From IMG/VR virus record IMGVR_UViG_3300028833_000062: DNA of 64,000 bases; one strand, written 5' to 3'. Both the position numbers and the translations under genes were made by a program. This stretch comes from an uncultured virus (IMG/VR IMGVR_UViG_3300028833_000062) (lineage: Duplodnaviria > Heunggongvirae > Uroviricota > Caudoviricetes). The notes under the pieces are model-generated. The model was not told the DNA's origin, ran no database searches, and saw only the letters and a list, made by a program, of their open reading frames with translations. This document shows, piece after piece, positions 5,542 to 48,038 of this stretch (position 1 is the stretch's first letter; each line of letters opens with the position of its first letter).

Positions 5542-5565
5542 TATATAATATATTTGTTTTTATTA

Positions 5566-8500
5566 ATGGCTAAACATAGAGATTTTGGTACAATAAGAGT
5601 AAGAATACAATTACCTTCAACTGATGAACAGAAGGCAATAGTAGGAAGTATGCCTGATAATTTACAAAAAATAGGTGCAGATATTGATAGTGCTATGTTA
5701 GCTATTATTACCGGAGATACATCTAAAAAACCTAATATCGGTGATATTGCTAAAGGATTTACTATCGGTAAAGATGGTACATTATTTAGTAATATAAAAA
5801 ATATTAATGAAGAAATTACACAAATAAAAACTGAATTAACTAATAGTAATAAAACATTATCAGATATATATGGTTTACTTAATTCAATTACTACTAAAGA
5901 AAATCCAGAATCAAAAAAATCATCTGTTCTTATTGTTGATACAACAAAGGCAAATAATTTAGAACAAATTCTTGGAGAGGTAAAAAATCTTGCTAATAAT
6001 TCAAATGAAGTTGATTTAGATGGTTTTATTAACATTGAAAAATTCTTTATAATGTTAAATGAACTAACTAATGAAAATGGTATAATAACTCAAGCAGTAA
6101 ATAATACAAATAATATACCTAATTTATCTAAAAAGGCAAATAAAAATATTCATACATTAACATCTTTATTTACTGCTATTAATAATTTAATTGTAATAGA
6201 TTCTAATAAAATAAAAAGTAGTAGTGATGAACTTAAAGCTAGTATTGAATATTTAAATAAAATATTAGAAGATATATCAAAGCTTGACATTGATGATAAT
6301 ATTAAAAATGTCAAGAAAACATTTGATTCTATAAAGAGTTTATATGATGATAATGTTAAAGTAACTGCTGAAGCAGTAAAAAATCATACAGCAGACCTAA
6401 ATACTATAAAATTAGGTCTTGATCAATCATATGAAACAGTTATAACATCTCATGATAGAATGAGTGATTTAGATATTGATGATATAGAATTAACTGCTGG
6501 TGATGTCGCAGGTGCTATTGCTTTATTAGGTGTAGTTATGCTTATTGGTGGAGCAATAATAAAGAATAATCCAGACTTAATTCTTGAATCAGTAAAATTT
6601 GGTGCTGTATTAACTACTTTCTTATTAGAATTAAGTATACCTATTGCTGTTATTGGTGTAATAAATAATAGACTTGACGCATCTTTTGATTCTTTAGCTG
6701 AATTAACTGTTTTTATAACAATTGCATCATTTGTAATGTTTATTGGCGCATTAGTTGTTCAAAATAAGAGATTAGTTATTAATTCATTATTATTTGGTAC
6801 GGTTTTCTCAATATTTTTATTTGTAACTCTTGGAGCTATTAATATTGCTACAAAAAATATTACTCCTGAACTATTCAAAGATATTCATAAATTATCTTGG
6901 TTAATCATTACATGTACATTTGTAATGTTGATTGCTACTAAATTTGTTGAATCAAAAGAAATATGGGCTAATGCTTTACTATTTGGAATAATATTAGGAG
7001 GTTTTATCATTGCTGTATTATTACCATTTGCTTTATATGGTAGATTATTTAAAAAGACAATAGAGATAGCATCAGGTGCTGTACAATTAATTTTAGTATG
7101 TACACTAATAATGGTTATTGCAGCATATTTTGTTAAAACAAAAGAAATATGGGAAAATTCATTAAGATTTAGTGGTTTATTATTTGTATTTATATTTGCT
7201 ACTACTGCACCACTATTATTCTTTGCTCTTCTTAAAGAAAAAGCATATGAAGCTATAGATTCTTATAGAAGATTTATAGTTACATCATTAATTATAATGA
7301 CATTAGGTATCATCTTTATGAATATTAAAGGTGGTAAATATGCTATTGATGCTTTACAATTTGGTGCTTTATTAGGAGCATTTATATTTGCAACATTATT
7401 ACCTGTTCTTTTATTTATTCCTTTACAGAAGAAAGCAACATCAACAATATTAGTTATAACTTTATTTGTATTAAGTTGTGCTGCTATATTATTTATGGCT
7501 GCTACTATTATTGAAAGTGGTACATGGAAAGCTGCATTATTATTTAGTGTAGCAATGGGATTATTTATTACATCAATATTATTACCATTTAAGAAAGGTG
7601 TTAATGAAAGTATTACTAGAGCAACATTAGCTATTTTATCATTAAGTGTTTTAGTATTTGTTTCAGGATATACTATAAAAATGGTAGCAGAAACTGTTAA
7701 AGATAATGGTTGGGGTAAAACTTTAATAGGTGCTGGTATTTTTGTTGCAACATTACTTATTTTAGTTGGAGGAATTGTATTTATATCTTCACTTATTGAA
7801 AATAATATAAATCCAAATAAAGTAAAAGCAATTTCATTTACTTTATTATCTATATCAGTTCTTATACTTATAACTTCATATTCTTTATCATTATTGAAGA
7901 AATCTGGAATTGAATTAGCAGATATTGGAAAATTTGCTATTTTAAACGCTATTGTTATTGCAATGGTTGGTTTAATAGTTTGGATTTCAAGTAAAGCAGA
8001 TTTTAATAACGTTAAAAATACTATAATGATAATGGGAGCAATTAGTCTTACATTATTAGTTATTGTTGGTACATTATGGTTATTAAAGAAAGCTGAAATT
8101 ACAAAAGAACATTTAATACAAATTGGACTTATAGCTGCTGGTATTACAGTAATGCTTGCTATTATTATGGTTATATCAATGATACCTGCTAAAAGAGTTT
8201 TAGAAGCAAGTAAAATAATGTTTGGAATAACATTTGTATTAGCTTTAGCAGTTGGTGCAATATGGTTAATGAAGAAAGCTAAAATTGATGAAACAGATTT
8301 AAAAAGAATTGGACTTATAGCTGGCGGTATTACTGTAATGACAGGTATTATAATGGCAATTAGTTTAATACCAGCAAAAAATACAGAAGCAGCTATTGGT
8401 ATAATGCTTTCTATAGGTATTACATTAGCTTTAGTGGTTGGAGCAATATGGTTAATGAAAACTGCTCAAATTAAAGAAGAAGATCTTAAATTAATAGGAT

Positions 8501-11500
8501 GTATAGCTGGTGGTATTACTATAATGACAAGTATTATTATGGGATTATCAGCAATAAAATCAGTTGATGCTAAAAAAGCTATATTAATTTTAGCTAGTAT
8601 TACTATATGTTTAGTAGGATTAGTTTTAACTTTAGCATATTTAGCTAATTCTGGTATTGATTGGAAACATATTTGGATGTTATATGCTATTGAAGGAGCT
8701 GTTGTAGTTTTAACTGCTATTACAATAGGTATTGGAATATTACTTGAAAAAGTAAAAGATAAAGGAAAATTTTATGAAAGTTTATTTATAGTTTCTTTAA
8801 TGACAGCTTGTGTTATTGGATTAGCTCTTGGTATTTCAGAAATAGCAAAAGCTGGTGTTGAATGGAAACATGTTTTAATGTTAGGTGCTCTTGAATTAGC
8901 TGTTGTAGCTTTAGTTGGTTTAGTTTTTGCTATTGGTGCTATAACTTCAATTCCAGGAGTAAAAACATTATTAGCAATTGGTGCAGTTATTATTGCAGCA
9001 GCTGTTGGTGTAGTTTTATTAATAGGTATTGCTATAAGAAAAATAGCAGATGCAGCAAAAGAAGCAGATGAAGTAAAACATCCAGAATCAATAGGTCTTG
9101 TTTTATCAGCATTTTTTAATTCATTTAAAGATTTAAGTTTAGGTAGTACATTAAAATTAGCTTTATTTGGTAAAAAAATAGCTAAAACAGTTAATAGATT
9201 AGTTGAACCAATTTCAAAGATTGTTGAAATTATAAAAAATATATCATCATTAAATGTTCCTACTGGTTTTGATAAAAATGGTAATCCAACAGGATATACA
9301 CGTTTAACTCCAGAAGAATTTAAAAAAACTGCAAGTAATATAACAGATATACTTATGGTTATTCCAAATGGTGTTGCACCAGCTGCTAAAAGTATAAAGA
9401 AATTTGTAAAGAGTAATAAAAAAACAGATAATTTATTAGAAGTAATTAGTAATATGGGCGAAATTATTTCTAATATAGCTAAAGGTGTTCAATCATATGC
9501 TAATTTAGCAATACCTTCCGGATGGGATGAAAATTGTAAACCAACTGGTTATAGATTAATGAATGAACAAGATTTTATAAATGCTGGAAATAGTATAAAA
9601 CAAATACTTATAATAATACCAGAAGCTATAAAAAATACTTATGGTGATTTAAAGAAATTAATAAAGAATAATGAAATTGACAGTGTTATAAAAACTTGTG
9701 TAAGTATTGGTGATATTATTGGTAATATAGCTAAAGGTGTTCAATCATATGCTAAATTATTAATTCCAAAAGATTATGATGAAAATGGTAAGCCTAAAAG
9801 ATATGAATTAATGACAAAAAAAGATTTTAAGGATGCTGGTGAGGCAATTTCAGAAATTATGCTTACAATGACAAAAGGTGTTATTAATGCATATAAAGAA
9901 TATGAAACTATAATGACACCAAGCAAATTCAAGAAAATTATTAAATCATTTTCTCCTATTGGTGAATTAATATCTAATATGAGTAAAGGTATTAAAGATA
10001 TAATTGAATTAGAAATACCTATATATGATGAAAATGGTAATGTTGTTGGTAAGCAAAAATTAAATGAAAATGACTTTACTGATTTAAAAACTAATCTTAA
10101 TATATTAATGACAGGAACATCACAATCAATTGTTGATATTGCTGACAATATGAAGAATAGTGATTTAGATCCTAGTTCTAAAAAGTTCAAAGCTATTATT
10201 GAATCATTTGTACCAATTGGAGAATTTATTTCTAAATTAGCAACTGGTATAAAAGATTATGCGTCAGCAACTTATACAGATGAAAATGGTAAGAAGATTC
10301 ATGTTACTCCAGAATATATACAAGAAGCTGGAACTAATATATCTACATTATTAACAACTGTAACAAATTCATTAATAGATTATTATAATGATCCTAAATA
10401 TACAAAGTTATTTGATAAAGATATTATTAAAAATATAGGAACACAATATAAAGAAATTACAGAAGTTATAAGTTCAATAATTGATTCTATTAAGAAAATA
10501 GGAGAAATTAAAAATGATATTATAATAACTAGTCTTAATAATTTAAATACAATATTTAATGGAACAAAGAAAGATAAATCAGATAGTTTAATAAATATTA
10601 TATGCTCAGCATTTAGTGATAATATAAGTTATGATTCAAATAAATTAAAAACTATACAAACTATATTTACAGATTTATTTGATACTATTAATATATTAAA
10701 TAAAAATTTAACTGAGAATGAAATTAAAAATATTCCAGAACAAAAAATTATAGCTATTATTGATAGTATTACTAATATAATTAATAAATTTAAACCTGGA
10801 GATAGTTTTTGGGATGATAATAAGAATGTATTAAATATTGCAAATAAGTTTAAAACATTTGATTTAATAAATGGTTATATATCATCATCTATAAAGAAAA
10901 TTAGTAAATTAATAGATAATATAGATAAATTAAATATTAATAATTTATATTATGAAGAAGTAAATGATGAAAATAAAGAAACTAAAAATAAAATTAATAA
11001 AATTACTAAAGTATTAAATTCTATTAGTAATATTACTAATATATTAAATTCAAACACAAATGTAAAAATAGATAGAGAAAAAATAAATAAATTAAAAAAG
11101 GAACTTGGTTTAATAGATAATTTAATAGATGTCTTAAAGAATTCTTTTAAAAAACTTAATAAATTTAATAAGGCATATGAAACTGATAATAATTTTGATA
11201 ATATTTCCATAGCTATTAAAAAGTTTAATATTGCTTTTGCTAATATTAAGAAAGAATTAGAAGGAGATCCTAAAAATAATATTCCAGGATTATCTAATGA
11301 ATCAATTAAAAATTTAGCTAAGTTAGAATATAAAGTTGAAACATTTAGTAATATTGTTAGAGACCTTATAAAAGCATCTTCTGATTCAATAAAGAATCCT
11401 AAGTTATTTGAACAAATTGGACAAGGTATTTCAACAATAAATAGTAAATTAAATGAAGTAAATAGTAATAATGCTGAAAAGATTGATAATGAAGTTAGAT

Positions 11501-11856
11501 CATTAGATAAATTTGTAAAATCAGTTGATAGAATTGATTTAGTTAAAGTTACAAAAATGACAAGTCTTATGGAAGCAATGAGTAATTTAGCTGATAAGAT
11601 GGGTGGTTTTGATAAACTTGCTGAATTATTAGATGGTGATTTTATAGAAATACTTACTAAACTTAATGATACAGTTAATGAAGCAAAACAAAGTATAGAA
11701 ACATCAGAACGTATTAATAAGCAAAGACAGCAAGAATTAAAGAAGAATATTGAAGAATTCAGTAAACTTATGGATAAGAATATTGTTGTTGGAGTAAGTG
11801 AACTTGATAAAGATGGTAATCTTAAAGTAAGTTCAGAAAAAATAAAAAAGAGTTAA
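5566..11856 (+). CDS. Tape-measure-like protein with a long multi-transmembrane repeat region
   Basis: ~2100 aa, helical; central ~850 aa of hydrophobic helix repeats (IWL.K.A.I....L..IG.IA.GIT.M); repeats G.II.NIAKGVQSYA; next to a tail-tube-like gene; ATG at 5566. Confidence 0.55.
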   Translation: MAKHRDFGTIRVRIQLPSTDEQKAIVGSMPDNLQKIGADIDSAMLAIITGDTSKKPNIGDIAKGFTIGKDGTLFSNIKNINEEITQIKTELTNSNKTLSDIYGLLNSITTKENPESKKSSVLIVDTTKANNLEQILGEVKNLANNSNEVDLDGFINIEKFFIMLNELTNENGIITQAVNNTNNIPNLSKKANKNIHTLTSLFTAINNLIVIDSNKIKSSSDELKASIEYLNKILEDISKLDIDDNIKNVKKTFDSIKSLYDDNVKVTAEAVKNHTADLNTIKLGLDQSYETVITSHDRMSDLDIDDIELTAGDVAGAIALLGVVMLIGGAIIKNNPDLILESVKFGAVLTTFLLELSIPIAVIGVINNRLDASFDSLAELTVFITIASFVMFIGALVVQNKRLVINSLLFGTVFSIFLFVTLGAINIATKNITPELFKDIHKLSWLIITCTFVMLIATKFVESKEIWANALLFGIILGGFIIAVLLPFALYGRLFKKTIEIASGAVQLILVCTLIMVIAAYFVKTKEIWENSLRFSGLLFVFIFATTAPLLFFALLKEKAYEAIDSYRRFIVTSLIIMTLGIIFMNIKGGKYAIDALQFGALLGAFIFATLLPVLLFIPLQKKATSTILVITLFVLSCAAILFMAATIIESGTWKAALLFSVAMGLFITSILLPFKKGVNESITRATLAILSLSVLVFVSGYTIKMVAETVKDNGWGKTLIGAGIFVATLLILVGGIVFISSLIENNINPNKVKAISFTLLSISVLILITSYSLSLLKKSGIELADIGKFAILNAIVIAMVGLIVWISSKADFNNVKNTIMIMGAISLTLLVIVGTLWLLKKAEITKEHLIQIGLIAAGITVMLAIIMVISMIPAKRVLEASKIMFGITFVLALAVGAIWLMKKAKIDETDLKRIGLIAGGITVMTGIIMAISLIPAKNTEAAIGIMLSIGITLALVVGAIWLMKTAQIKEEDLKLIGCIAGGITIMTSIIMGLSAIKSVDAKKAILILASITICLVGLVLTLAYLANSGIDWKHIWMLYAIEGAVVVLTAITIGIGILLEKVKDKGKFYESLFIVSLMTACVIGLALGISEIAKAGVEWKHVLMLGALELAVVALVGLVFAIGAITSIPGVKTLLAIGAVIIAAAVGVVLLIGIAIRKIADAAKEADEVKHPESIGLVLSAFFNSFKDLSLGSTLKLALFGKKIAKTVNRLVEPISKIVEIIKNISSLNVPTGFDKNGNPTGYTRLTPEEFKKTASNITDILMVIPNGVAPAAKSIKKFVKSNKKTDNLLEVISNMGEIISNIAKGVQSYANLAIPSGWDENCKPTGYRLMNEQDFINAGNSIKQILIIIPEAIKNTYGDLKKLIKNNEIDSVIKTCVSIGDIIGNIAKGVQSYAKLLIPKDYDENGKPKRYELMTKKDFKDAGEAISEIMLTMTKGVINAYKEYETIMTPSKFKKIIKSFSPIGELISNMSKGIKDIIELEIPIYDENGNVVGKQKLNENDFTDLKTNLNILMTGTSQSIVDIADNMKNSDLDPSSKKFKAIIESFVPIGEFISKLATGIKDYASATYTDENGKKIHVTPEYIQEAGTNISTLLTTVTNSLIDYYNDPKYTKLFDKDIIKNIGTQYKEITEVISSIIDSIKKIGEIKNDIIITSLNNLNTIFNGTKKDKSDSLINIICSAFSDNISYDSNKLKTIQTIFTDLFDTINILNKNLTENEIKNIPEQKIIAIIDSITNIINKFKPGDSFWDDNKNVLNIANKFKTFDLINGYISSSIKKISKLIDNIDKLNINNLYYEEVNDENKETKNKINKITKVLNSISNITNILNSNTNVKIDREKINKLKKELGLIDNLIDVLKNSFKKLNKFNKAYETDNNFDNISIAIKKFNIAFANIKKELEGDPKNNIPGLSNESIKNLAKLEYKVETFSNIVRDLIKASSDSIKNPKLFEQIGQGISTINSKLNEVNSNNAEKIDNEVRSLDKFVKSVDRIDLVKVTKMTSLMEAMSNLADKMGGFDKLAELLDGDFIEILTKLNDTVNEAKQSIETSERINKQRQQELKKNIEEFSKLMDKNIVVGVSELDKDGNLKVSSEKIKKS

Positions 11857-22413: not shown

Positions 22414-22441
22414 TTGAATTTCCTCATTTTTGTTCTATATT
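22414..22441 (+). promoter_or_regulatory. Sigma70-like promoter TTGAAT-N16-TATATT
   Basis: Same architecture and identical downstream TATTAATGTAATTA at 39030-39070. Confidence 0.7.
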
Positions 22442-36239: not shown

Positions 36240-38063
36240 TTAATTTATATTATAATTTCCATCAGAAATATAATCATTGTTTTCATTTACAATGGTATAT
36301 TTTCCATATAAATTGTTTATATCTGATGAATTTATTGAAAAAATTACATATATATCATTTCTTCCTATTTCAATATATTCTTGTTGTTCAATAATCAATT
36401 TAAATGTTTCTACTTTTGATAAATATTCACTTAAATCAATACCAATATTCTGAGTAAATCCATTTCTTAAACTGATATTTTGTAATTCAGATGTTTTATA
36501 AAATATTGGTTTATATATTACTCTTGGAGTACTTGATTTTTTAATACTTATATTATTATCATTTTCTGATGATTTTAAAATTGAACAATTTATTTTATCA
36601 ATAAATACAAGATTATCTTTATTTATTTCTGTTACTAACATATTTGTTTTATTGTTTAATTTATATATCTTATTAAATGTTAATTTATGTATAGATAAAT
36701 CATTTATTAAATATTTATACCATTCTTTAGATAATATAACTGGATTAGAACGTATAATATTACAATTTACTTTATCGATAAATGATATTCTATATACAAT
36801 TAATTCAGGAATATCATCCCAAGTATCAAAAATATCTGCTAATGGTAACATCATATTATCAATTATAGAATCATTTAAATTGCTACATGATTTATAAAAT
36901 ACTTCATTAAAATATTTATCTGTACTAAATTCTATTAAAAATCCTGTTTTATTTATATTTTCTAAATCTTCACCAAATAAATCATTATCTTCTTCTTTAT
37001 TATTTTCATAATTTATATATTCATTTTTAGTAATATTATTGAAAAATAAATATGATTCTTCTAAAGTTTTATTATCATAATCTGGATATGAAAATTCATT
37101 TACAATAAAAGGAATTCCATAATATTTATTATATAATGTTTGTGATTCAAACTCTTCTTCTTTTAAAAATTTTATTTTACTTTTTAAAGAGAATGAAACA
37201 TTTATATTAAATGTATTAGAGTTTTGTAAATTATCAAGATCTTGAACATACATATTATTACTATCAACATCAATATATGGTGTTAATATAATATTCAATG
37301 TATTATAAAATTGATTATTGATATAATTTATTTTATTATCAAAAATCTTCTTATAAGATACACTACCATTTTCTTTAATATCAGATTCAATACTATATGG
37401 ATAATATAATAAATAAAATGGTACTAAAGAAGTATATTCATTATCATTATTCTTTAAATTAAATTTTTCTTGAGTATTTCTATTTATACATTCATTATAA
37501 TCTTCTATATAAATATCTTTATCATATAAAAGTAATTTTAAACAAGGTATATATAATTCTATATATTCTGAATATGTTATATTATTTATTACTAATTCAG
37601 TATTAGATAATCTTGGATAATTTTTACTTAAATCAACTAAATAATGAAATTTTATATCATTTATATAATTTTCAATATCTATTATACTATTTAATGTTGT
37701 ATAAATAGTTGGTATATATATTCTTATTTTATCACACAATATTTCTGTCTCATTAAAACTTGAATTATATATCTTATACTTATTATATTCTATATTATCT
37801 CTTTTTATCTTATCATTAAAATTTGATGGATCTGTTGAATATCCAAGAGATGTTCCATTTGGAATAGGGAAACAAGAAATATTTTTATTTGACTCAGGAA
37901 TAAAAAATATATCTTTATCTACAAAGATACCAGATATAAAGTTTTGATTTTTTAATATGTAAAACTTTTCATAATGATGCAAATCATTTTTTAAATCAGT
38001 CATCGCATCAAAATAATCAATAATATAAGTATAATTACCTAATATTACTTTTTCTCTTATCAT
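36240..38063 (-). CDS. Hypothetical virion/baseplate-associated protein
   Basis: 607 aa, first gene of the baseplate operon, class-2 motif upstream. Confidence 0.55.
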   Translation of the reverse strand: MIREKVILGNYTYIIDYFDAMTDLKNDLHHYEKFYILKNQNFISGIFVDKDIFFIPESNKNISCFPIPNGTSLGYSTDPSNFNDKIKRDNIEYNKYKIYNSSFNETEILCDKIRIYIPTIYTTLNSIIDIENYINDIKFHYLVDLSKNYPRLSNTELVINNITYSEYIELYIPCLKLLLYDKDIYIEDYNECINRNTQEKFNLKNNDNEYTSLVPFYLLYYPYSIESDIKENGSVSYKKIFDNKINYINNQFYNTLNIILTPYIDVDSNNMYVQDLDNLQNSNTFNINVSFSLKSKIKFLKEEEFESQTLYNKYYGIPFIVNEFSYPDYDNKTLEESYLFFNNITKNEYINYENNKEEDNDLFGEDLENINKTGFLIEFSTDKYFNEVFYKSCSNLNDSIIDNMMLPLADIFDTWDDIPELIVYRISFIDKVNCNIIRSNPVILSKEWYKYLINDLSIHKLTFNKIYKLNNKTNMLVTEINKDNLVFIDKINCSILKSSENDNNISIKKSSTPRVIYKPIFYKTSELQNISLRNGFTQNIGIDLSEYLSKVETFKLIIEQQEYIEIGRNDIYVIFSINSSDINNLYGKYTIVNENNDYISDGNYNIN

Positions 38064-38160: not shown

Positions 38161-39003
38161 ATGAAAACATTTTCAAATTACATTGATAATATAAAATTAA
38201 TTGATGAAATTTGTTCTTATGAATATAGTGATGTAGTTCTTGAAGGAATATTAAAGAAAATAGCTAATTGGTTTGGTAATAAATCAAGAAATATATCTAA
38301 TAAATTAAATAATTTTTATGATGAATTATATTATTTTCCAGATAATGTAATAAAGACATTTAATGGAACATTATCAATTGCAGCAGATGAAACTAATGAT
38401 TCACAAGAAAATAAAGATATTATAAATAACATTATTAATGATAAACCAGAAAATATACCAGAAAAAGTTATAAATTATCTTAAAGAACATGAAAATGATA
38501 AAGATTTTTATAATTCAATACTTATTGCTTCATTATGTGTATTAGGTATAAATGTAGCAAATGAAAATAAAGATCAAAAATCAGTAGATACTATAAAATT
38601 ATATTTTAATAAAATTAGTGATAAAATAAAGGAAGATACTAAAGATATTTTAAAAAAATCTACAAATAATCCAGATAATAATGATAATGATAATGATAAT
38701 AATCCTTCAGAAGATCTTACTAAAAAAGTTGATGATGTAGTACAAAATGTAGTAGATGATAATCCAGATATAGATATTAATAAAGAAAAAGAAAGAGAAT
38801 TAATAGAAACAATAACTTGGATGATTTTTTATAAATATAATAAAAATAATATGAATTCAGACGAAATTGAAGATAATGCCAAGAGACTTGCTAATATATT
38901 AATAAATGAATTAGAATTAGATGATGATTTAAAACAGAAATTTAATATAACTTCATTAGATGATTTAAAACAGAAAATTGAAGATTATAAAAACAATAAA
39001 TAA
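38161..39003 (+). CDS. Protein with capsid-targeting-like leader and amphipathic helix
   Basis: MKTFSNYI...VLE/GILKKIANWFG; class-2 motif at 38128. Confidence 0.7.
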   Translation: MKTFSNYIDNIKLIDEICSYEYSDVVLEGILKKIANWFGNKSRNISNKLNNFYDELYYFPDNVIKTFNGTLSIAADETNDSQENKDIINNIINDKPENIPEKVINYLKEHENDKDFYNSILIASLCVLGINVANENKDQKSVDTIKLYFNKISDKIKEDTKDILKKSTNNPDNNDNDNDNNPSEDLTKKVDDVVQNVVDDNPDIDINKEKERELIETITWMIFYKYNKNNMNSDEIEDNAKRLANILINELELDDDLKQKFNITSLDDLKQKIEDYKNNK

Positions 39004-39031
39004 AAAGTTGCAATTTTTGCAACTTTTTTTT
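39003..39031 (+). terminator. Intrinsic terminator
   Basis: aaaagttgcaa-ttt-ttgcaacttttttt. Confidence 0.85.
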
Positions 39032-39057
39032 GAATTTCTAGAAATACTTACTATATT
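39030..39057 (+). promoter_or_regulatory. Sigma70-like promoter TTGAAT-N16-TATATT
   Basis: Near-copy of the promoter at 22414. Confidence 0.7.
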
Positions 39058-39063
39058 ATTAAT

Positions 39064-39450
39064 GTAATTAATTTAGCTCTTTGAATGCCATTAAAAATAC
39101 CTAAAAACCAATATTGAAATCGAGGTTATCTTGAAATAAGTTTAGCAGATTTCACATTTTTTGGAGGATAAACCAATGTAATAGATAAAATATATAATTA
39201 ATTTTATTCTAATTTATTTAATCTTAAGAGTAAAAACTAACAAAGAGAGTTAAAGTTTTTCAAAACCTTTTTCAACGCTCTCGCAACAATAATTAAGGCG
39301 TAAGGTGTTTAAAAAACGAACAATACAGACTAGTCATCTGATATTGAAGCCTGAGTGACTTGGAAAGAAAAGATAATATAATATTTAATACGAATTATTT
39401 AATTTAATTATGAATATAAAAATGAGCACCTTTGAGTATCAGGTGCTCTT
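39064..39450 (+). ncRNA. Candidate structured non-coding RNA (~350-390 nt)
   Basis: ORF-free region between a promoter and a terminator, with several stems, 5'/3' end pairing and a boxA-like GCTCTTTGAA. Confidence 0.45.
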
Positions 39451-39457
39451 ATTTTTT
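39424..39457. terminator. Terminator hairpin
   Basis: gagcacct...aggtgctc followed by ttattttt and preceded by an A tract. Confidence 0.8.
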
Positions 39458-39459
39458 AA

Positions 39460-39801
39460 TTATTTATTTTTAAATTCTATGTCATGTATATATATTGTTG
39501 TAAGATCATCTTCATCAAAGGTTATAAAAAAACTATCTATATAATCATTATCAAAAAATTTCTTTTTTATCTCTTTAATACAACTATGTAAAAAAGATGA
39601 TGATTTTTCTTTTTTAAATTTTATATATAACCATTTATCATCATCTATAATAAATGTATAATCATCATCTTTATATAAAAATTCTCCATCAAAATAAGAT
39701 TCTAGATCAAATAATAGTTTATCCATATTATCTGATTTTACATTTATATTTTTATTAAGATGTAATTTTTCTGTTATATATTGACTTAAATTATTCATCA
39801 T
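39460..39801 (-). CDS. Protein with capsid-targeting-like leader (KLHLNK subtype)
   Basis: MNNLSQYITEKLHLNKNI. Confidence 0.7.
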   Translation of the reverse strand: MMNNLSQYITEKLHLNKNINVKSDNMDKLLFDLESYFDGEFLYKDDDYTFIIDDDKWLYIKFKKEKSSSFLHSCIKEIKKKFFDNDYIDSFFITFDEDDLTTIYIHDIEFKNK

Positions 39802-39865: not shown

Positions 39866-40552
39866 ATGAAAACAATTAATGAATATATTAGATTTTCAGT
39901 TAATAATATAAACTATAATATTATTGACGAAGCATTAGCTCTTGAATCAGAAGGATGGACAATGCAAGATGTTTATGAGACATTATTTATAACTGATATT
40001 TATGATAATGATCAATTAAATGAAGGTTGGATTGGTGATAAACTTAGAAAATTAGCTGGTGCGGCTGATACTGCAGAAGATAAAGCAAAAGAAACAATAA
40101 ATAAAACAAAAGAAGGTATTAAAAATGCTAAAGATGCAGTTGTTGCAAAATTTGATGAATGGTCAAATGAAGCAAAAGAAGCATTCAATAATTTAAAGAA
40201 ATGGGCCGGAAGTAAATGGGATAAAGTTAAAAAAGATATAACTGAAATAATTGGAAAAATTGAAGCAGCATTTAATAAAATAAAAGATACAATAAAAAAT
40301 ATTGTTGTTTCTATTGGTAAACTTAGTAAAGATATTGTTTTAACAACAGTAGGTCTTTTAATTTTATTAGTAAAACAAATAATAGCATTGATTGATAAAG
40401 GTTCAGATTTAGTTATGAAATTATTTAATGATGCAAAATTATTTGCTGGTAATGCAATATTTAATTTAGGTGCTGTTGCCGCTAAGAAAGCTGGTTTATC
40501 TCAAGAAGAATTAACAAATGTTTTAACTTTAACATTTTCTTATGCAAAATAA
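39866..40552 (+). CDS. Helical, apolipoprotein-like protein with capsid-targeting-like leader
   Basis: MKTINEYI...LNE/GWIGDKLRKLAG followed by amphipathic helices and a hydrophobic segment. Confidence 0.7.
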   Translation: MKTINEYIRFSVNNINYNIIDEALALESEGWTMQDVYETLFITDIYDNDQLNEGWIGDKLRKLAGAADTAEDKAKETINKTKEGIKNAKDAVVAKFDEWSNEAKEAFNNLKKWAGSKWDKVKKDITEIIGKIEAAFNKIKDTIKNIVVSIGKLSKDIVLTTVGLLILLVKQIIALIDKGSDLVMKLFNDAKLFAGNAIFNLGAVAAKKAGLSQEELTNVLTLTFSYAK

Positions 40553-40570
40553 TTTAAATATTATAAATAT

Positions 40571-40602
40571 AAAAAAGAGCTCTTTTTAAAGAGCTCTTTT
40601 TT
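40571..40602. terminator. Bidirectional terminator
   Basis: aaaaaagagctcttt-tt-aaagagctcttttt. Confidence 0.85.
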
Positions 40603-42263
40603 TATTTTTCTTCTCTACTATGTTTATTGTATTCTGATGAATGAAATTCTTCTTCAAAAGTATGTTTAGCACCAGGATTAATCATATAAGCCATTTTTGC
40701 CATTATATCTCTATTAAGAAGAACTGGTGTTGATTTCTTTCTATTATCAACAAGAGCAAAATCTACATTAAGTAATTTTCTTGAACCAATCTGAATACAA
40801 GGTACTATTACAGTAACTCTTTCTTCACGTACTTGTCCAACTATAGGGTTTGAAACCCCACTTTTCTTAAATCTATATGTTTTACCATTTATAACTGCTG
40901 ATACTTTATCTCCAACTACTTCAACTGATTCACAACCAATTGTAGAAGCTTTAGCGCCATTACCTGTATCAAATTTAGCTTCAAGTTCAAATTCTGAATC
41001 ATTATCCATAATAAACTTCATATTTTCAATATAACCAATTGATTTAGGTGCAAGTACAAGCTCATTAATATCATTGATTGCATCAAGAAGTATCTTACAG
41101 AAATTTTCTCCAATTACTTCAGAAATACCTTCTGTACCTGGAGAGCAGTTATATTCAAGAACAACATTATCTCCAATCTCTGGATTAGAACCTTTTACAA
41201 GAGGCATAATATCAACAGCACACCAAGGCATACCTGAAATCTTTGCTACATTTAATGCAATATCTTCTTGTTCTTTAGTAATTTCAACTTTTTCAGCTTC
41301 TGCACCAAGAGATACATTACTTCTGAAATCACCACCAAGTTTCTTTCTCTTCATACATGCAAGAATTGTTTGTTTTGTTCTGCTTGTAAGAACATGCACT
41401 CTGATATCACCACCATCAGCTTCTTCTTTCTTTTGAAGAAGTAATTCTCTTTCAGGGTCAATAGCAAATATTGCTTGAAGAATTGCAAGAATACCTTTAC
41501 CTGTTGTCATGAATACACCTGTTCCACCATGACCATCAAGAATCTTTACAACATATTCTCTCTTTTCATCTTCTTCTTTATTTTCACCTACTTCTTTATA
41601 AATAAGTTTAAGTTTCTTCTGAAGAGATTCTTCACCTTTAGATACATCTTTTGAAGAAAGAAGACAGAATTTTGGTTGTGGAATATCATATCTTTTCATA
41701 AGAACAGCTGAAGCATATTTATTACTTGCTCTTTTAGCTGCTTGAATTGGATTAAGAACAAAAAGACCCCAATCTTGAAGTTCTTTAATACATTCCATAC
41801 ATTCTTCACTATCTTGTGCACCAAGACGTGCAATAACTATTGTATCTATATTTGATTGATCTGTTATAGTAAATTTCTCTTTAGAATCTTTAATTTCAAT
41901 TTTCTTATCATCTGCACTATAATCAACTTCTTCAGAAACAAATGTTATAAGATTTACATCTGTATTTTTAAGTGCATCTTGAAGGTTTTTAAGAGTTTTA
42001 TTTTTTGAAGCATCTCTTTCATTTGTAAAGAAGATAATATTCTTAAAGAAATATTCTTCATTTCTTTTTATTTTTTCAGCATTCTGTACAGTATCATTTT
42101 TTGCACCTAATTGTTCAGCTGCTTGATCAACTGCTTGGTCTTCTGAACCAGGTTTTTCTGGATTTTTTTCTGCACCAGTATTTTCTTCTGCTTCTAAAAT
42201 AGATTCTACTTCATCTATTGATTTAATAAATTTTGATTCTAAAAGTTCAGTTAAAGTTTTCAT
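40602..42263 (-). CDS. RimK-family ATP-grasp ligase fused to a RimB-like retropepsin domain
   Basis: G.GGTGV, DIRV, FRSNVSLG, AVD, EYN.SPG (ATP-grasp); C-terminal AKFDTGN...LLNRD (retropepsin-like); leader MKTLTELLES. Confidence 0.8.
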   Translation of the reverse strand: MKTLTELLESKFIKSIDEVESILEAEENTGAEKNPEKPGSEDQAVDQAAEQLGAKNDTVQNAEKIKRNEEYFFKNIIFFTNERDASKNKTLKNLQDALKNTDVNLITFVSEEVDYSADDKKIEIKDSKEKFTITDQSNIDTIVIARLGAQDSEECMECIKELQDWGLFVLNPIQAAKRASNKYASAVLMKRYDIPQPKFCLLSSKDVSKGEESLQKKLKLIYKEVGENKEEDEKREYVVKILDGHGGTGVFMTTGKGILAILQAIFAIDPERELLLQKKEEADGGDIRVHVLTSRTKQTILACMKRKKLGGDFRSNVSLGAEAEKVEITKEQEDIALNVAKISGMPWCAVDIMPLVKGSNPEIGDNVVLEYNCSPGTEGISEVIGENFCKILLDAINDINELVLAPKSIGYIENMKFIMDNDSEFELEAKFDTGNGAKASTIGCESVEVVGDKVSAVINGKTYRFKKSGVSNPIVGQVREERVTVIVPCIQIGSRKLLNVDFALVDNRKKSTPVLLNRDIMAKMAYMINPGAKHTFEEEFHSSEYNKHSREEK

Positions 42264-42994: not shown

Positions 42995-45900
42995 ATGAGT
43001 AAAAGAAAAGATCTTAAAAAGATTATGGTCATAGGTAGTGGTCCAATTGTAATTGGTCAAGCTGCCGAATTTGATTATGCTGGTACACAAGCATGTCTTG
43101 CACTTAAAGAAGAAGGATATGAAGTTATTCTTGTAAATTCTAATCCAGCAACAATTATGACAGATACTAATATTGCTGATAAGGTTTATATGGAACCTTT
43201 GACTTTTGATTATGTATCTAAAATTATTTATAAAGAACGTCCAGATGGTATTGTACCAGGTCTTGGTGGTCAGACAGGATTAAATCTTGTAACAGAACTT
43301 TCACAAAAAGGTGTTCTTGATGAATGTGGTGTAGAAGTTCTTGGTACATCATTTGAAAGTATAAATATTGCTGAAGACAGAGAAAAATTTAAAAACTTTT
43401 GTATTGATAATAATATTCCTGTAATTCCTTCGGAGATTGTACATGATATTCAAGGTGCTATTAATGCAGCATCTTCAATTGGATATCCTGTTGTTCTTCG
43501 TCCAGCATTCACTCTTGGTGGAACAGGTGGTGGATTTGCTTATAATGAAGATGAATTAAAGGAACATATGATAAATGCTCTTAATCTTTCACCTATTCAT
43601 CAGGTACTTATAGAAAAGAGTGTAAAAGGTTATCGTGAGATTGAATTTGAAGTAATGAGAGATAACAATAACAATGCTATATGTATTTGTGGAATGGAAA
43701 ATGTTGATCCTGTTGGAATTCATACAGGTGATTCAATTGTTGTTGCTCCATGTATAACAGTTTGTAAAAATGATTATGAAAGGTTAAAAAATGATGCTTT
43801 AAAGATTATTAAGAAATTACAAATTGCTGGTGGATGTAATGTACAGTTTGCTCTTTCTCAAGAAGATGAAGATAAATATTATATTATTGAAATTAATCCT
43901 CGTGTATCTCGTTCATCAGCTCTTGCATCAAAAGCATCTGGTTATCCTATTGCAAGAGTAACTGCTAAGATTGCTGTTGGTTATAATCTTAATGAAATAA
44001 ATCTTGATGATCATACAGCATTGTTTGAACCTTGTCTTGATTATATAATTGCTAAATTCCCAAGATTTCCATTTGATAAATTTGAAGAAGCTAAAGATGA
44101 ACTTTCAACTCAGATGAAAGCAACTGGTGAAGTTATGTCAATTGGTAAAACTCTTGAAGAAGCTTTCTTAAAGGGTCTTAGAAGTCTTGAAACAAAAACA
44201 TATCATTTATATAATTCTAAATTTGATCATTTTAAGAAACAAGAACTTATTGAATATATTTCAACTGATGCATATGATAAGATTTTTGCTATAGCACAAC
44301 TTCTTAGGATTGGTGTATCTGTAAAAGAAATATTTAATAAGACAATGATATGTGAAGATTTTTTAGTAGCATTTAGAAATATTGTTGAATTTGAAGAGAA
44401 GGTAGAACATTATGGCAAAGATGAAAATGCTGATTTTGGTGATATAATTTATAGAGCAAAGTTATTAGGTTTTTCTGATGAAGAAATAGCTCATCTTATA
44501 GATACAGATCCTTATGAAATTACTAAATATCGTTTAGATAATGGTTATGTACCAAAATATAGAATAGTTGATTGTTATTGTTATAGATATTCTATTGATA
44601 TAAATGGTAAAGAATATGAACATAAGAGATCAATTCCTTATTTCTATTCAACATATAATGATCTTGTAGAAAATGAATCAGTAAGAAGTAATAAAAAGAA
44701 AATCATAGTTCTTGGTTCTGGTCCTATACGTATTGGTCAAGGTGTAGAATTTGACTATTCTACAGTACATGCAATATGGGCTATCAAGAATATGGGTTAT
44801 GAAGCTATTATCATTAATAACAATCCTGAAACAGTTTCAACAGACTACACTATTTCTGATAAACTTTATTTTGAACCTCTTACTGTTGAGGATGTAATGA
44901 ATGTAATTAATTTTGAAAAACCTGATGGAGTAATTGTATCTCTTGGTGGACAAACAGCAGTAAATCTTGCTAATCCTCTTTCTAAGTTCAATATTCCAAT
45001 TATAGGTACTGGAATTGAAGCAATTAATAATGCTGAAGATAGAAAGATTTTTGAAAGCATTCTTGAAGAACTTAATATTCCTCAACCAAAAGCTATTGCT
45101 GTAACAAATATTGAAGATGGTTTAAAAGCTGCTAATGAAATTGGTTATCCAGTACTTGTTCGTCCAAGTTTTGTTCTTGGTGGTCGTGCAATGATGATTG
45201 TTGGTAATGATGATACTCTTAAGCATTATCTTGCTAATGCTGTTGCTCTTGATGAAAAATCTCCAGTTCTTATTGATAAATATATACAAGGTATTGAGTG
45301 TGAAGTAGATGCAATATGTGATGGAGAAACAGTACTTATTCCAGGTATAATGGAACATATTGAAAGAACTGGTGTTCATTCTGGAGACTCTATAAGTATA
45401 TATCCTTCAGTTAAATTAACTGATATAAATAAACAAAGGATTATTGAATATACAAAGAAACTTGGTGTAAGAATTGGTATTAAAGGATTATTTAATATTC
45501 AATATATTGCTAATGGTGATGATATTTATGTTATTGAGGTAAATCCAAGAAGTTCTAGAACAATTCCATTCTTAAGTAAGTCTACTAATATTCCTATGGC
45601 AAAAATTGCTACAGAAATAATGTTAGGTAAGAAATTAGTTGATTATGGATATCCTGAATATATTCCTGAAAAGAATTCATATTTTATCAAAACTCCTGTA
45701 TTTTCATTTAATAAACTTATAGGTGTTGAGTCATATTTGTCACCAGAGATGAAATCTACAGGTGAGGCGATAGGTATTGATAAAACTTTCACAAAAGCTC
45801 TCCAGAAGAGTTTGTGCGCCTCTGGATTAAAGATTAAAGACCATGGTACGATATTCGTAAGTGTATATGATGATGATCGTGAAGAAGTATTACCTATTAT

Positions 45901-46216
45901 AAAGAGATTTTATGATTTAGGATTTAATATTGAATCTATAAATGGTACAGCTACTTTCTTAAAAGAACATGGTATACATACTAAGACTCTTAAGAATCTT
46001 TCATATTATGATCTTATTAGAAATGGACACTTTACATATATAATCAATAGGATTAATGTAAATCAGCATTCATCTCATCTTGATGATTATGGTATTCGTC
46101 ACGTTGCTACTGAATGTAATGTACCAGTATTTACATGTCTTGATACAGTAAATGCACTTCTTGATGTTATTGAAGATATAACATTAAACGTTAATGATAT
46201 TACTAAATTCAATTAA
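42995..46216 (+). CDS. carB: Carbamoyl-phosphate synthase large subunit
   Basis: GSGPIVIGQAAEFDYAG, duplicated ATP-grasp halves (EINPRVSRSS, EVNPRSSRT), GSGPIRIGQGVEFDY, EMKSTGE; 1073 aa. Confidence 0.97.
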   Translation: MSKRKDLKKIMVIGSGPIVIGQAAEFDYAGTQACLALKEEGYEVILVNSNPATIMTDTNIADKVYMEPLTFDYVSKIIYKERPDGIVPGLGGQTGLNLVTELSQKGVLDECGVEVLGTSFESINIAEDREKFKNFCIDNNIPVIPSEIVHDIQGAINAASSIGYPVVLRPAFTLGGTGGGFAYNEDELKEHMINALNLSPIHQVLIEKSVKGYREIEFEVMRDNNNNAICICGMENVDPVGIHTGDSIVVAPCITVCKNDYERLKNDALKIIKKLQIAGGCNVQFALSQEDEDKYYIIEINPRVSRSSALASKASGYPIARVTAKIAVGYNLNEINLDDHTALFEPCLDYIIAKFPRFPFDKFEEAKDELSTQMKATGEVMSIGKTLEEAFLKGLRSLETKTYHLYNSKFDHFKKQELIEYISTDAYDKIFAIAQLLRIGVSVKEIFNKTMICEDFLVAFRNIVEFEEKVEHYGKDENADFGDIIYRAKLLGFSDEEIAHLIDTDPYEITKYRLDNGYVPKYRIVDCYCYRYSIDINGKEYEHKRSIPYFYSTYNDLVENESVRSNKKKIIVLGSGPIRIGQGVEFDYSTVHAIWAIKNMGYEAIIINNNPETVSTDYTISDKLYFEPLTVEDVMNVINFEKPDGVIVSLGGQTAVNLANPLSKFNIPIIGTGIEAINNAEDRKIFESILEELNIPQPKAIAVTNIEDGLKAANEIGYPVLVRPSFVLGGRAMMIVGNDDTLKHYLANAVALDEKSPVLIDKYIQGIECEVDAICDGETVLIPGIMEHIERTGVHSGDSISIYPSVKLTDINKQRIIEYTKKLGVRIGIKGLFNIQYIANGDDIYVIEVNPRSSRTIPFLSKSTNIPMAKIATEIMLGKKLVDYGYPEYIPEKNSYFIKTPVFSFNKLIGVESYLSPEMKSTGEAIGIDKTFTKALQKSLCASGLKIKDHGTIFVSVYDDDREEVLPIIKRFYDLGFNIESINGTATFLKEHGIHTKTLKNLSYYDLIRNGHFTYIINRINVNQHSSHLDDYGIRHVATECNVPVFTCLDTVNALLDVIEDITLNVNDITKFN

Positions 46217-46259
46217 TAAAAATTACTATATTAAATAAAATTAAAATAATTTATATAAT

Positions 46260-48038
46260 ATGAAGAGTTTACTTTTAACACTTGGACATAATTCATCCGC
46301 AATTTTTGTAGAAGATGGTAAAACACCTATTGGTTATGAAGAAGAAAGATTAACAGGTATTAAATCTGATTCACAGTTTCCTACTGATGCAATTCATGAA
46401 ATTGCTAGAAATGTAGGTATTAAGAATATGAAAGGTTGTAAGATATTTATTTCACATTGGTTTGATTTTATTCCTAATGTAATACCTAATAAATATATTA
46501 CTCAGACTGATATTGACAATCTTAAAGAAATTTCTGATGATATTACCTTTGTATCTCCAGAATTTACACATCATGATGCTCATGCTTATGCTGGTAAGAG
46601 TTTCTTTGATTATCATTTCTCAAAGTTAAATACTGATCCTTATTGTGATGTTTCTCTTAAACTTCAGCAGAATAAAGATATTTATGTTATTGTAGCTGAT
46701 GGTTTTGGTAATAATGGTGAGGTTCTTTCAGTTTATAAAATTAATGATTATTTAAATAATAGATTTAGTAATCTTAATCTTGAACATAGAGTTTATGGAT
46801 ATAAGAATTCTATTGGTCTTATGTATCAGTATGCAACTTCTTATGTTGGTATGAAAGAAAATCAAGATGAGTATAAATTCCTTGGATATGAAGCTCATAT
46901 TGATGAATATCTTAATAAATATAAGATTGATATTCTTGATGCATATATCAAAGAACTTGTAAATACTCTTTGGGAAGGATTTGAAAGAGATACTAATACT
47001 AATGTATATAAAAAGTGTGAATATTTAATTAATTTTGATTCACTTAAAGAAACTAAAGAATATTTCCATAATATCTTTAGAGAAGCATATGAGACAGTAT
47101 GGAAAGCTGATGATAAAGCAAAATATTCAAAAGAAGATAATGAATTTATTCAGAGAAGTATTGTAGCATATTATCTTCAGCAGACAGTAGAACAATTCTT
47201 TGGTAAGGTTGTTGAAAAGTTTAATATACAGAATGTAGTTGTAGTTGGTGGTTCATTCTATAATGTAAAACTTAATAATTATATTTTTGAACATACTAAT
47301 GGTGTATATTGTGCAATGCCTCTTGCAGGTGACCAAGGTGCTGCTATAGGTCTTTATTACTATTATACTGGTGAACAATTCAATTTTGAAACACTTTGTA
47401 TTGGTAAGAGAAATTTCTATGGTGCTGAAAAGGTATTTAAGAAGAATTTCTATAGAGAAGCTACTGATGAACTTGCAAAAGAAATAGCAAGAAAGATTGC
47501 TGATGGATATATTGTAGATCTTGTACATGGTTCTATGGAATTTGGTCCTCGTGCTCTTATGCATACATCAAGTTTATTTATTCCTACAGTAGAGAATACT
47601 GCTCAGAATAATTCAAATAATCTTAGAAATGAAGTAATGCCTTGTGCGCCAGTTCTAACAAAAAAGAATGCTGAATTTTTATTTGGTAAAGAAAGTATTA
47701 ATCGTGTTGTTGGTAGTGATGAATTTATGATTCTTACACATACTTATAAGAGAGGATATTCAGAACTTTATGGTGGTGTAATGCATAAGATTGTCCTTAA
47801 AGATGGTTATTCTGGTCGTCCACAAATTGTAAGAGAAGGAACATTTGAAGAGAAGATTCTTAAATATGTTGAAGAACTTGCAGATATTAAATGTCTTGTC
47901 AACACATCTTATAACAAGCATGGTACACCTATTCTTTATTCAATGAAGCAAATTAAAGATGACTACAATTTCCAAGTTGAACATTCACAAATGAATGGTT
48001 ACAAGAAGTCTCCTTTACTTTATGTAGTTGAAGATTAA
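46260..48038 (+). CDS. NodU/CmcH-family O-carbamoyltransferase
   Basis: GHNSSA, EEERL.GIK, HHDAHA, DGFG, EYK.LG, NVKLN, GDQGAAIG, EFGPRAL, RPQ, VNTSYN.HG.PI. Confidence 0.9.
   Translation: MKSLLLTLGHNSSAIFVEDGKTPIGYEEERLTGIKSDSQFPTDAIHEIARNVGIKNMKGCKIFISHWFDFIPNVIPNKYITQTDIDNLKEISDDITFVSPEFTHHDAHAYAGKSFFDYHFSKLNTDPYCDVSLKLQQNKDIYVIVADGFGNNGEVLSVYKINDYLNNRFSNLNLEHRVYGYKNSIGLMYQYATSYVGMKENQDEYKFLGYEAHIDEYLNKYKIDILDAYIKELVNTLWEGFERDTNTNVYKKCEYLINFDSLKETKEYFHNIFREAYETVWKADDKAKYSKEDNEFIQRSIVAYYLQQTVEQFFGKVVEKFNIQNVVVVGGSFYNVKLNNYIFEHTNGVYCAMPLAGDQGAAIGLYYYYTGEQFNFETLCIGKRNFYGAEKVFKKNFYREATDELAKEIARKIADGYIVDLVHGSMEFGPRALMHTSSLFIPTVENTAQNNSNNLRNEVMPCAPVLTKKNAEFLFGKESINRVVGSDEFMILTHTYKRGYSELYGGVMHKIVLKDGYSGRPQIVREGTFEEKILKYVEELADIKCLVNTSYNKHGTPILYSMKQIKDDYNFQVEHSQMNGYKKSPLLYVVED

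Follow-up and report, generated by a model that had tools for sequence, protein, structure and literature searches.

The window analysed here is a stretch of 64,000 nucleotides, bases 80934-144933 of a 168,026-bp IMG/VR virus record with a CheckV completeness of 59%. Its source is a large AT-rich T4-related rumen phage. The GC content across the window is about 19-31%, the record encodes a T4-type baseplate wedge protein, a helicase, nucleotide-metabolism enzymes, carbamoyl-phosphate synthase and a RimK-like ATP-grasp protein, and the public runs that contain window DNA are sheep and bovine gut metagenomes; a relative, G001 (410 kb, 97% complete), whose ATP-grasp gene is 66% identical to that of the window, encodes a T4-type Gp23 capsid gene. 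The window also holds a set of metabolic genes unusual for a phage, in which a full-length carbamoyl-phosphate synthase large chain (1073 aa), a carbamoyltransferase and the RimK-like ATP-grasp protein adjoin (42995-48038 and 40602-42263), and a 2100-aa ORF at 5554-11856 (+) with no Pfam or PHROG match.

The genome is densely packed, the 12th-largest ORF-free gap of the whole record measuring 116 nt, so that a dead stretch of 400 nt would be unusual in it. One interval, 39004-39409, contains no ORF of at least 40 aa on either strand, and 39004-39459 contains none of at least 60 aa; the former is the largest gap without an ORF of at least 40 aa both in the window, as an earlier note on this DNA had claimed of its non-coding gaps, and in the whole record, where the next largest measure 317 and 310 nt. 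The longest ORFs that touch the gap run to 13-19 codons, with none of at least 20 aa in the window's unit. Stop-codon recoding was ruled out: every frame of the gap holds 6-12 TAA codons, and therefore reassigning a stop opens no frame, and TAA ends most genes of the record (149, with TGA ending 21 and TAG 14). A start-stop site, GGAGGA-N7-ATG-TAA at 39163-39181, was dismissed in a phage that does not rely on Shine-Dalgarno sites, since Shine-Dalgarno-like 4-mers stand upstream of 9 of the 184 ORFs of at least 100 aa in the whole record, below the background of 8.8%. We likewise rejected a pseudogene of a nearby gene, as tblastx of three bodies of the unit against 35 related loci and the record returned only self matches and hits at E 0.04-0.1.

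The anatomy of the locus, from left to right, is as follows.

38161-39003, + strand: upstream neighbour gene, 280 aa, no Pfam or PHROG match; the unit begins just past its stop
39002-39028, both strands: terminator 1, a bidirectional hairpin AAAAAGTTGCAA/TTGCAACTTTTT from the terminator scan; it terminates the 280-aa gene and bounds the cassette on the left
39030-39059, + strand: promoter of the class TTGAAT-N16-(C)TATATTAT, with the -35 element at 39030-39035 and the -10 element at 39052-39057; activity predicted
39060-39092, + strand: conserved transcript start TAATGTAATTAA...TTGAATGCCATT, from the alignment of the window with the related loci L031 and L032
39085-39117, + strand: mini-ORF MPLKIPKNQY*, its ATG 25 nt past the promoter motif
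39102-39205, + strand: variable segment, with three substitutions and five of the six gap columns relative to the related locus L028; unalignable with L031 and L032
39206-39417, + strand: 3' domain, identical in L028
39330-39362, + strand: hairpin of seven pairs with a conserved U-U mismatch and a 17-nt loop, including the agtca/tgact stem
39425-39456, both strands: terminator 2, GAGCACC/GGTGCTC followed by the T-run TTATTTTTT; it also ends the convergent 113-aa gene
39460-39801, - strand: convergent neighbour gene, 113 aa, no Pfam or PHROG match; outside the cassette

We read this layout as terminator 1, promoter, some 360 gene-free nucleotides and a bidirectional terminator; transcription from about 39064 to about 39452 would then yield an RNA of about 390 nt that could encode at most a mini-ORF of 5-18 codons.

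Both neighbours vary among related loci. Homologues of the 280-aa protein in L031, L032, L034 and L035 are 24-58% identical to it, and relative to L028:8328-9170 the gene shows seven differences, all at codon positions 1 or 2 and none at position 3, which hints at diversifying selection on the protein. The 113-aa gene is 85% identical in L028; relative to L035:9568-10053, the two proteins have in common only the first 25 or so residues (M..L..YI.EKLHLNKN, 60% identity) and diverge afterwards, which suggests that these small convergent proteins may carry a common N-terminal module on different bodies.

Promoter, terminators and the 5' end

The promoter at 39030 is intergenic and sigma70-like, reading TTGAAT-N16-TATATT with conserved flanks. 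Its description as a near-copy of the promoter at 22414 is borne out: the window has exactly two occurrences of the pattern TTGAATTTC-N12-CTATATTATTAATG, at 22414 and 39030, and 100 shuffles have none; the 20-mer CTATATTATTAATGTAATTA is identical at the two positions. The record holds ten copies of the class, on the + strand, while G001 has 21 forward copies and one reverse, against two and two for a reversed-pattern control. Behind most copies an ATG follows at 12-27 nt, and the genes so placed, an RNA ligase, a NUDIX hydrolase and an operon with an HD hydrolase among its members, are all non-structural; because of these genes and this spacing, the class would fit an early or middle type of promoter. 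The leaders of 12-27 nt are A-rich. Together with the scarcity of Shine-Dalgarno-like 4-mers in the record, such leaders would fit a host that initiates translation without Shine-Dalgarno pairing, for example one of the Bacteroidota. A search of G001 for other ORF-free units behind this promoter class gave two candidates, both rejected, with ORFs 47 and 140 nt downstream. Outside the window, at G000:C1:160550-160738, a copy of the class is followed at the canonical distance by a 20-codon ORF only, with about 120 nt to the next gene.

The terminator scan reported terminator 1 on both strands (two found, 0.1 expected); the hairpin directly precedes the promoter and is kept in L031 and L032. Terminator 2 is absent from the scan's list because its loop is longer than the scan permits. 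The GC-rich hairpin that had been placed at the end of the gap is nonetheless there, at 39425-39447, followed by its T-run, and its stem shows compensatory changes in both diverged relatives, reading GAGCTTCTG/CAGAAGCTC in L031 and AAGAGCTC/GAGCTCTT in L032.

Because of the position of the -10 element, transcription is predicted to start near 39064. The first 30 or so transcribed nucleotides, TAATGTAA..TTGAATGCCAWT, are conserved in the alignment, and the 10-mer TTGAATGCCA, which contains the ATG, is identical in the window, L028, L031 and L032; it has no other exact match in the 168-kb record and is shared with no other promoter copy. Targets complementary to this 5' block were sought in the phage record, where two near-matches were found and about 4.6 expected, nothing above chance. 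An IMG/VR pattern scan for the block returned 116 stretches, which we judged to be chance, the promoter lying upstream in none of those fetched. The boxA-like element proposed within the 5' region did not survive comparison with the relatives: the letters GCTCTTTGAA are present at 39076-39085, but they overlap an 8-nt stretch missing from L031 and L032, so that the AGCTCT part falls within the indel and is absent from both. A boxA/nut-type antitermination site was set aside with it, the boxA not being conserved in the L031 and L032 leaders.

The ten-codon mini-ORF noticed with its ATG at 39085 is present, and its distance of 25 nt lies within the usual 12-27 nt range of start codons behind this promoter class. 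It runs to 10 codons in the window, 18 in L028 (frameshifted by an inserted AA), 5 in L031 (MPFKR*) and 6 in L032 (MPIKRY*), and only M-P-(L/F/I)-K is kept across the copies. That the product of the unit is this short peptide, or that its translation serves as a leader-type regulatory device, seems unlikely to us. The ATG and the next three codons do recur in all four copies at the canonical promoter distance, and the missing Shine-Dalgarno site is no objection, because the phage does without such sites. Beyond codons 4-7, however, length and sequence vary, even in the 97% identical strain, and no same-strand gene stands before the terminator, hence a leader would have nothing to regulate.

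Related phages and RNA libraries

Through the ATP-grasp gene 1.1 kb away we gathered 35 metagenome loci, nine of which, the window's own contig included, span the junction between the ATP-grasp gene and a 607-aa gene. The unit is present in four of the nine (its own contig, L028, L031 and L032) and absent from five (L034, L035, L029, L055 and L059). One bidirectional terminator, different from terminator 1, is all that parts the 280-aa-type gene from the convergent gene in L034 and L035; L029, L055 and L059 are without the 280-aa gene too. Because it is absent from these five loci and from G001, in whose 410 kb no copy was found, the unit is an optional cassette within a hypervariable island. 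At L028:6856-7542 (+), between homologues of 39866-40552 and 39460-39801, lies an extra 228-aa ORF (about 690 nt) that is missing in the window, which is further evidence that this island gains and loses single-gene units.

Among the loci that carry the unit, L028 is 97% identical over the gap, and the sixth of its gap columns, a 1-nt A insertion near 39417, is the sole body difference outside 39102-39205. L031 and L032 are considerably further away: the DNA of their ATP-grasp genes is 86% and 82% identical to that of the window, falling to 64% and 60% at four-fold sites. Both nonetheless keep the order of 280-aa-type gene, terminator 1, promoter, 250-320 ORF-free nucleotides, terminator and convergent gene, and the only frames in their units, 21-34 aa long, are unconserved and lie, with one exception, on the opposite strand. 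What is kept in the alignment is terminator 1, the promoter, the first 30 or so nucleotides, one 3' hairpin and the terminators; the centre is unalignable, and the body measures about 360, 320 and 240 nt in the three homologues. With 39000-39480 as the query, positions 5-97 are 78% identical in L031, whereas the last 140 or so nucleotides (39327-39470) reach 66%, about equal to the 64% at neutral four-fold sites.

This pattern of conservation bears on the main rival to a functional RNA, which we regard as quite possible: the unit may be a relic, an early-gene cassette of the hypervariable region whose coding body has decayed or been deleted, whose promoter still fires and whose RNA is a by-product. 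The ATG at 39085 stands where the protein genes behind other promoter copies begin; changes accumulate in the body at the neutral rate or faster, indels among them, and it shows no fold signal; and five of the nine informative loci lack the unit altogether. Against a relic, the ORF-less state, the terminators, the promoter and the private 10-mer have survived in three lineages with differences at 36-40% of their four-fold sites, the density of stops is as base composition predicts, unlike that of a recently broken frame, and the tblastx comparison of the three bodies with the 35 loci and the record found no protein-level remnant. Phage genomes as compact as this one usually delete dead DNA.

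Searches with the unit and its neighbours were also made beyond these loci. We set aside weak BLASTN matches of the body in several loci, L049, L037 and L054 among them (59-65% identity, E 1e-4 to 3e-6), as noise from AT-rich sequence: under that scoring, hundreds of alignments at 57-62% occur anywhere in the loci, and the matches are not syntenic. A body 18-mer search of 185,579 prokaryote genomes gave ten matches, none in a gut organism, against a rough chance estimate of 15-20, and these too were discarded. The unit matched none of 50,697 phage GenBank records, and an IMG/VR search with the 280-aa, 113-aa and 607-aa proteins and with an alignment of the 280-aa homologues returned no relatives.

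RNA from the gap is present in both of the RNA runs compared, X10 and X11, which are sheep-gut metatranscriptomes from two studies that possibly belong to one campaign; X3 and X8 are DNA runs. The X10 contig places 334 nt on 39080-39411 and the X11 contig 187 nt on 39237-39422, both wholly inside the gap; the latter has no differences from the window, while the former carries L028-type variants, which recur for 39102-39205 in an X3 DNA contig. The two RNA contigs end just short of terminator 2, whereas the DNA contigs of X3 and X8 continue past it. As assembled contigs they give no strand, ends or level, and their depth cannot rank expression, so that they lend no support to the note's words 'highly expressed'; we infer the strand and the exact ends of the transcript. 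The X11 contig hints that the 3' half, about 39237-39452, may accumulate as a processed product.

Among the RNA contigs listed, none covers the 280-aa or the 113-aa gene or bridges into the latter, and the summed X10 depth over the bins at 38170-38973 comes from partly fitting contigs only (62 of 67 contigs placed). In both RNA runs a further contig begins at 39860/39861, where the next gene has its 5' end. Within the 4-kb stretch compared, the bins 37902-38035 and 40314-40447 have a depth of 0 in both RNA runs and of 8.5-49 in the DNA runs. This speaks against mere carry-over of DNA; the contig pattern fits a discrete transcript instead. The feature is real and probably expressed, and the claim of a self-contained transcription unit that yields RNA is upheld by the promoter, the terminators and the gap-confined contigs of two metatranscriptome runs. 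We hold with high confidence that it is an accessory promoter-to-terminator cassette that is transcribed and is without a protein gene.

Folding, RNA families and repeats

Folding of the + strand is indistinguishable from that of shuffled sequence. Relative to dinucleotide shuffles, the minimum free energy gave z scores of -0.19 and -0.36 in two runs on the unit and of -0.85 and +0.90 in the diverged homologues L031/L032, and seven 120-nt + strand windows all fell between -0.78 and +1.01. The minus strand scored -1.8 to -2.4, which falls to -0.87 with the terminator excluded. Inverted arms of 11 nt with at most one mismatch number four, against 8.3 on average in 40 dinucleotide shuffles, of which 33 equal or exceed the observed count. 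The pairing that had been proposed between the 5' and 3' ends exists as letters (39065-39075 with 39400-39410), but it consists of A and T only and belongs to a kind of arm that is rarer here than the shuffle mean.

One hairpin of the 3' domain, 39330-39362, forms seven of seven pairs in both distinct sequences (window and L031), with two double-sided changes and one single-sided; in slid controls 14-50% of cells pair. Two distinct sequences give this covariation no power, 113 of 500 shuffles reaching it, and we treat it as an anecdote only. The hairpin shows only after proper alignment of the 3' arm; given the MAFFT alignment of the 3' domain, RNAalifold settled on another hairpin that is partly broken, and this we did not adopt.

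Known families gave no match. At the gathering score of Rfam 15, the 64-kb window had no matches, with 6S, tmRNA, RNase P, phi29 pRNA, ribozymes and riboswitches among the models; in E-value mode, the best hit over 38950-39520 was terminator 1 itself (39002-39028, E 0.29), L031 and L032 returned nothing at E up to 0.05, and ARAGORN found no tRNA or tmRNA. The statement that the unit is not recognisable as tRNA, tmRNA or RNase P is accordingly confirmed. That it is a structured RNA is not: + strand folding is no better than in shuffles in three homologues, and the stems are not above chance. A compactly folded RNA, be it a scaffold, a decoy or ribozyme-like, is on this evidence very unlikely; the minimum-free-energy fold has several short stems and the hairpin at 39330-39362 is kept with compensatory changes in L031, yet the z scores, the deficit of inverted arms, a centre that varies in sequence and length, and the lack of an Rfam match all stand against it.

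Repeats are equally scarce. The gap has no direct-repeat families, TRF reported low-score AT repeats only, and the record has no second copy of the body. A type III, ToxI-like antitoxin was sought and not found: there are no tandem direct repeats, and the next gene is convergent with no family match. Nor does the 168-kb record (59% complete) contain a match to PF00078 (reverse transcriptase) that would point to a diversity-generating-retroelement (DGR) template or a retron.

The least likely of the readings that we weighed places the function in the DNA or in cis, as a T4-type R-loop replication origin or as a convergent read-through transcript that dampens the 113-aa gene. A promoter followed by very AT-rich DNA, convergent with that gene, and a cumulative GC skew minimum near 38-42 kb are what it would lead one to see. 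The skew there, however, tracks gene orientation, direct repeats and iterons are lacking, close relatives do without the unit, and the RNA contigs end before terminator 2, with none of those listed reaching the 113-aa gene.

A possible non-coding RNA gene and its nearest known counterparts

We tentatively favour, as the most probable single account, an accessory cassette of early type whose product is a non-coding RNA of about 390 nt, weakly folded, selected and constrained at its ends. Selection would keep the unit as a non-coding RNA gene without a compact fold: the constrained parts would be the first 30 or so nucleotides (TAATGTAA..TTGAATGCCA), one hairpin of the 3' domain and the terminator, with the centre free to change. 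The RNA would be mostly linear and stabilised by the 3' hairpin and the terminator; early in infection it would act in trans, through its conserved 5' end, on a partner from the host or the phage. We prefer this account because the gene-free state, the terminators, the promoter and the private 10-mer persist over divergence, because the genome is compact and because RNA is found in vivo.

Several points weigh against the favoured RNA gene. The + strand has no excess folding, the 3' domain is near neutral identity and the centre is unalignable. The unit is dispensable and narrowly distributed (four of nine loci, none in G001), its ATG at the canonical distance resembles the start of a former gene, and complementarity in the phage record predicts no target above chance (two against about 4.6 expected).

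RybB and OmrA/B are bacterial base-pairing sRNAs with a conserved 5' end. By analogy only, the unit resembles them in its conserved promoter and first 30 or so nucleotides, its variable remainder and its 3' terminator hairpin; at about 390 nt, it is much longer than either, and the search of the phage record turned up neither a target, a chaperone nor seed pairing. A bolder and quite improbable extension is that giant rumen phages have a cassette with conserved ends and a swappable centre, in which the 5' handle and the 3' hairpin with its terminator would frame a fast-changing centre that base-pairs with variable transcripts of the host or of rival phages; the RNA, carried in a hypervariable accessory island, would then be programmable and serve in an antisense or anti-defence role.

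Among phages, four ncRNAs of 236-619 nt are described from RNA-seq of the Pseudomonas jumbo phage PA5oct (PMC7318152), and intergenic sRNAs from 201phi2-1 (PMC11512511). As presented there, these RNAs and the unit are alike in being transcribed regions of a few hundred nucleotides without a plausible ORF, with similarity confined to near relatives; those were mapped by directional or long-read RNA data from infected cultures, whereas the unit is seen in metatranscriptome contigs without strand or ends. The description of the PA5oct ncRNAs reports no known promoter for them (PMC7318152), whereas the unit has a clear promoter and terminator. The unit and these RNAs have no sequence relationship, as judged from the 50,697 phage records. 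If phage intergenic ncRNAs are defined operationally, as for PA5oct, as transcribed regions without a plausible ORF, the unit belongs among them.

Morons of lambdoid phages are independent promoter-to-terminator units with a protein gene, inserted between genes and absent from relatives. The unit is alike in having its own promoter and terminator between genes that one terminator parts in L034 and L035; a moron carries a protein gene, whereas the unit is without one. Morons are described in the discussion of a paper on T4-type phages (PMC2839356) whose subject is the promoter-early stem-loop (PeSL) cassette (Arbiol et al. 2010, PMC2839356). Like a PeSL cassette or a moron, the unit is self-contained and movable as a unit of transcription. 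In PeSLs as characterised there, and in the unit, a strong sigma70-like early promoter lies directly against a stem-loop terminator within a hypervariable region, and a flanked unit in some relatives is replaced by a single element in others. PeSLs are, in the same account, a repeated composite motif flanking small protein ORFs, whereas the cargo of the unit has no ORF. Among the ten strong promoter copies of the record, only that at 39030 has a stable stem-loop in the 45 nt upstream (-11.1 kcal/mol; the other nine 0 to -4.7, with a background mean of -2.1). The unit therefore falls outside the PeSL definition, because it has no ORF cargo and because the composite of stem-loop and promoter occurs at one of ten copies; it is present in some relatives and absent from others (four of nine loci carry it), with no cargo ORF of at least 20 aa in the window and unconserved frames of 21-34 aa in L031/L032.

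Large uncultivated phages are annotated almost wholly by their proteins. Here, public metatranscriptomes show an optional gene-free promoter-to-terminator unit transcribed in the rumen, and it is gene-free in diverged relatives too. If its RNA is functional, it would be among the first non-coding accessory genes described for AT-rich giant phages of the ruminant gut; if it is a relic, it shows how early-gene cassettes decay. On either reading, the unit should not be entered as a new class of structured RNA. More promising as a folded RNA than the unit at 39030-39457 is a stretch of 624 nt outside the window, G000:C1:22505-23128 (locus L178). It has no ORF of at least 60 aa and no Rfam match at E up to 0.05; its GC content of 0.31 is clearly above that of the surrounding DNA, and a strong hairpin with a T-run closes it.
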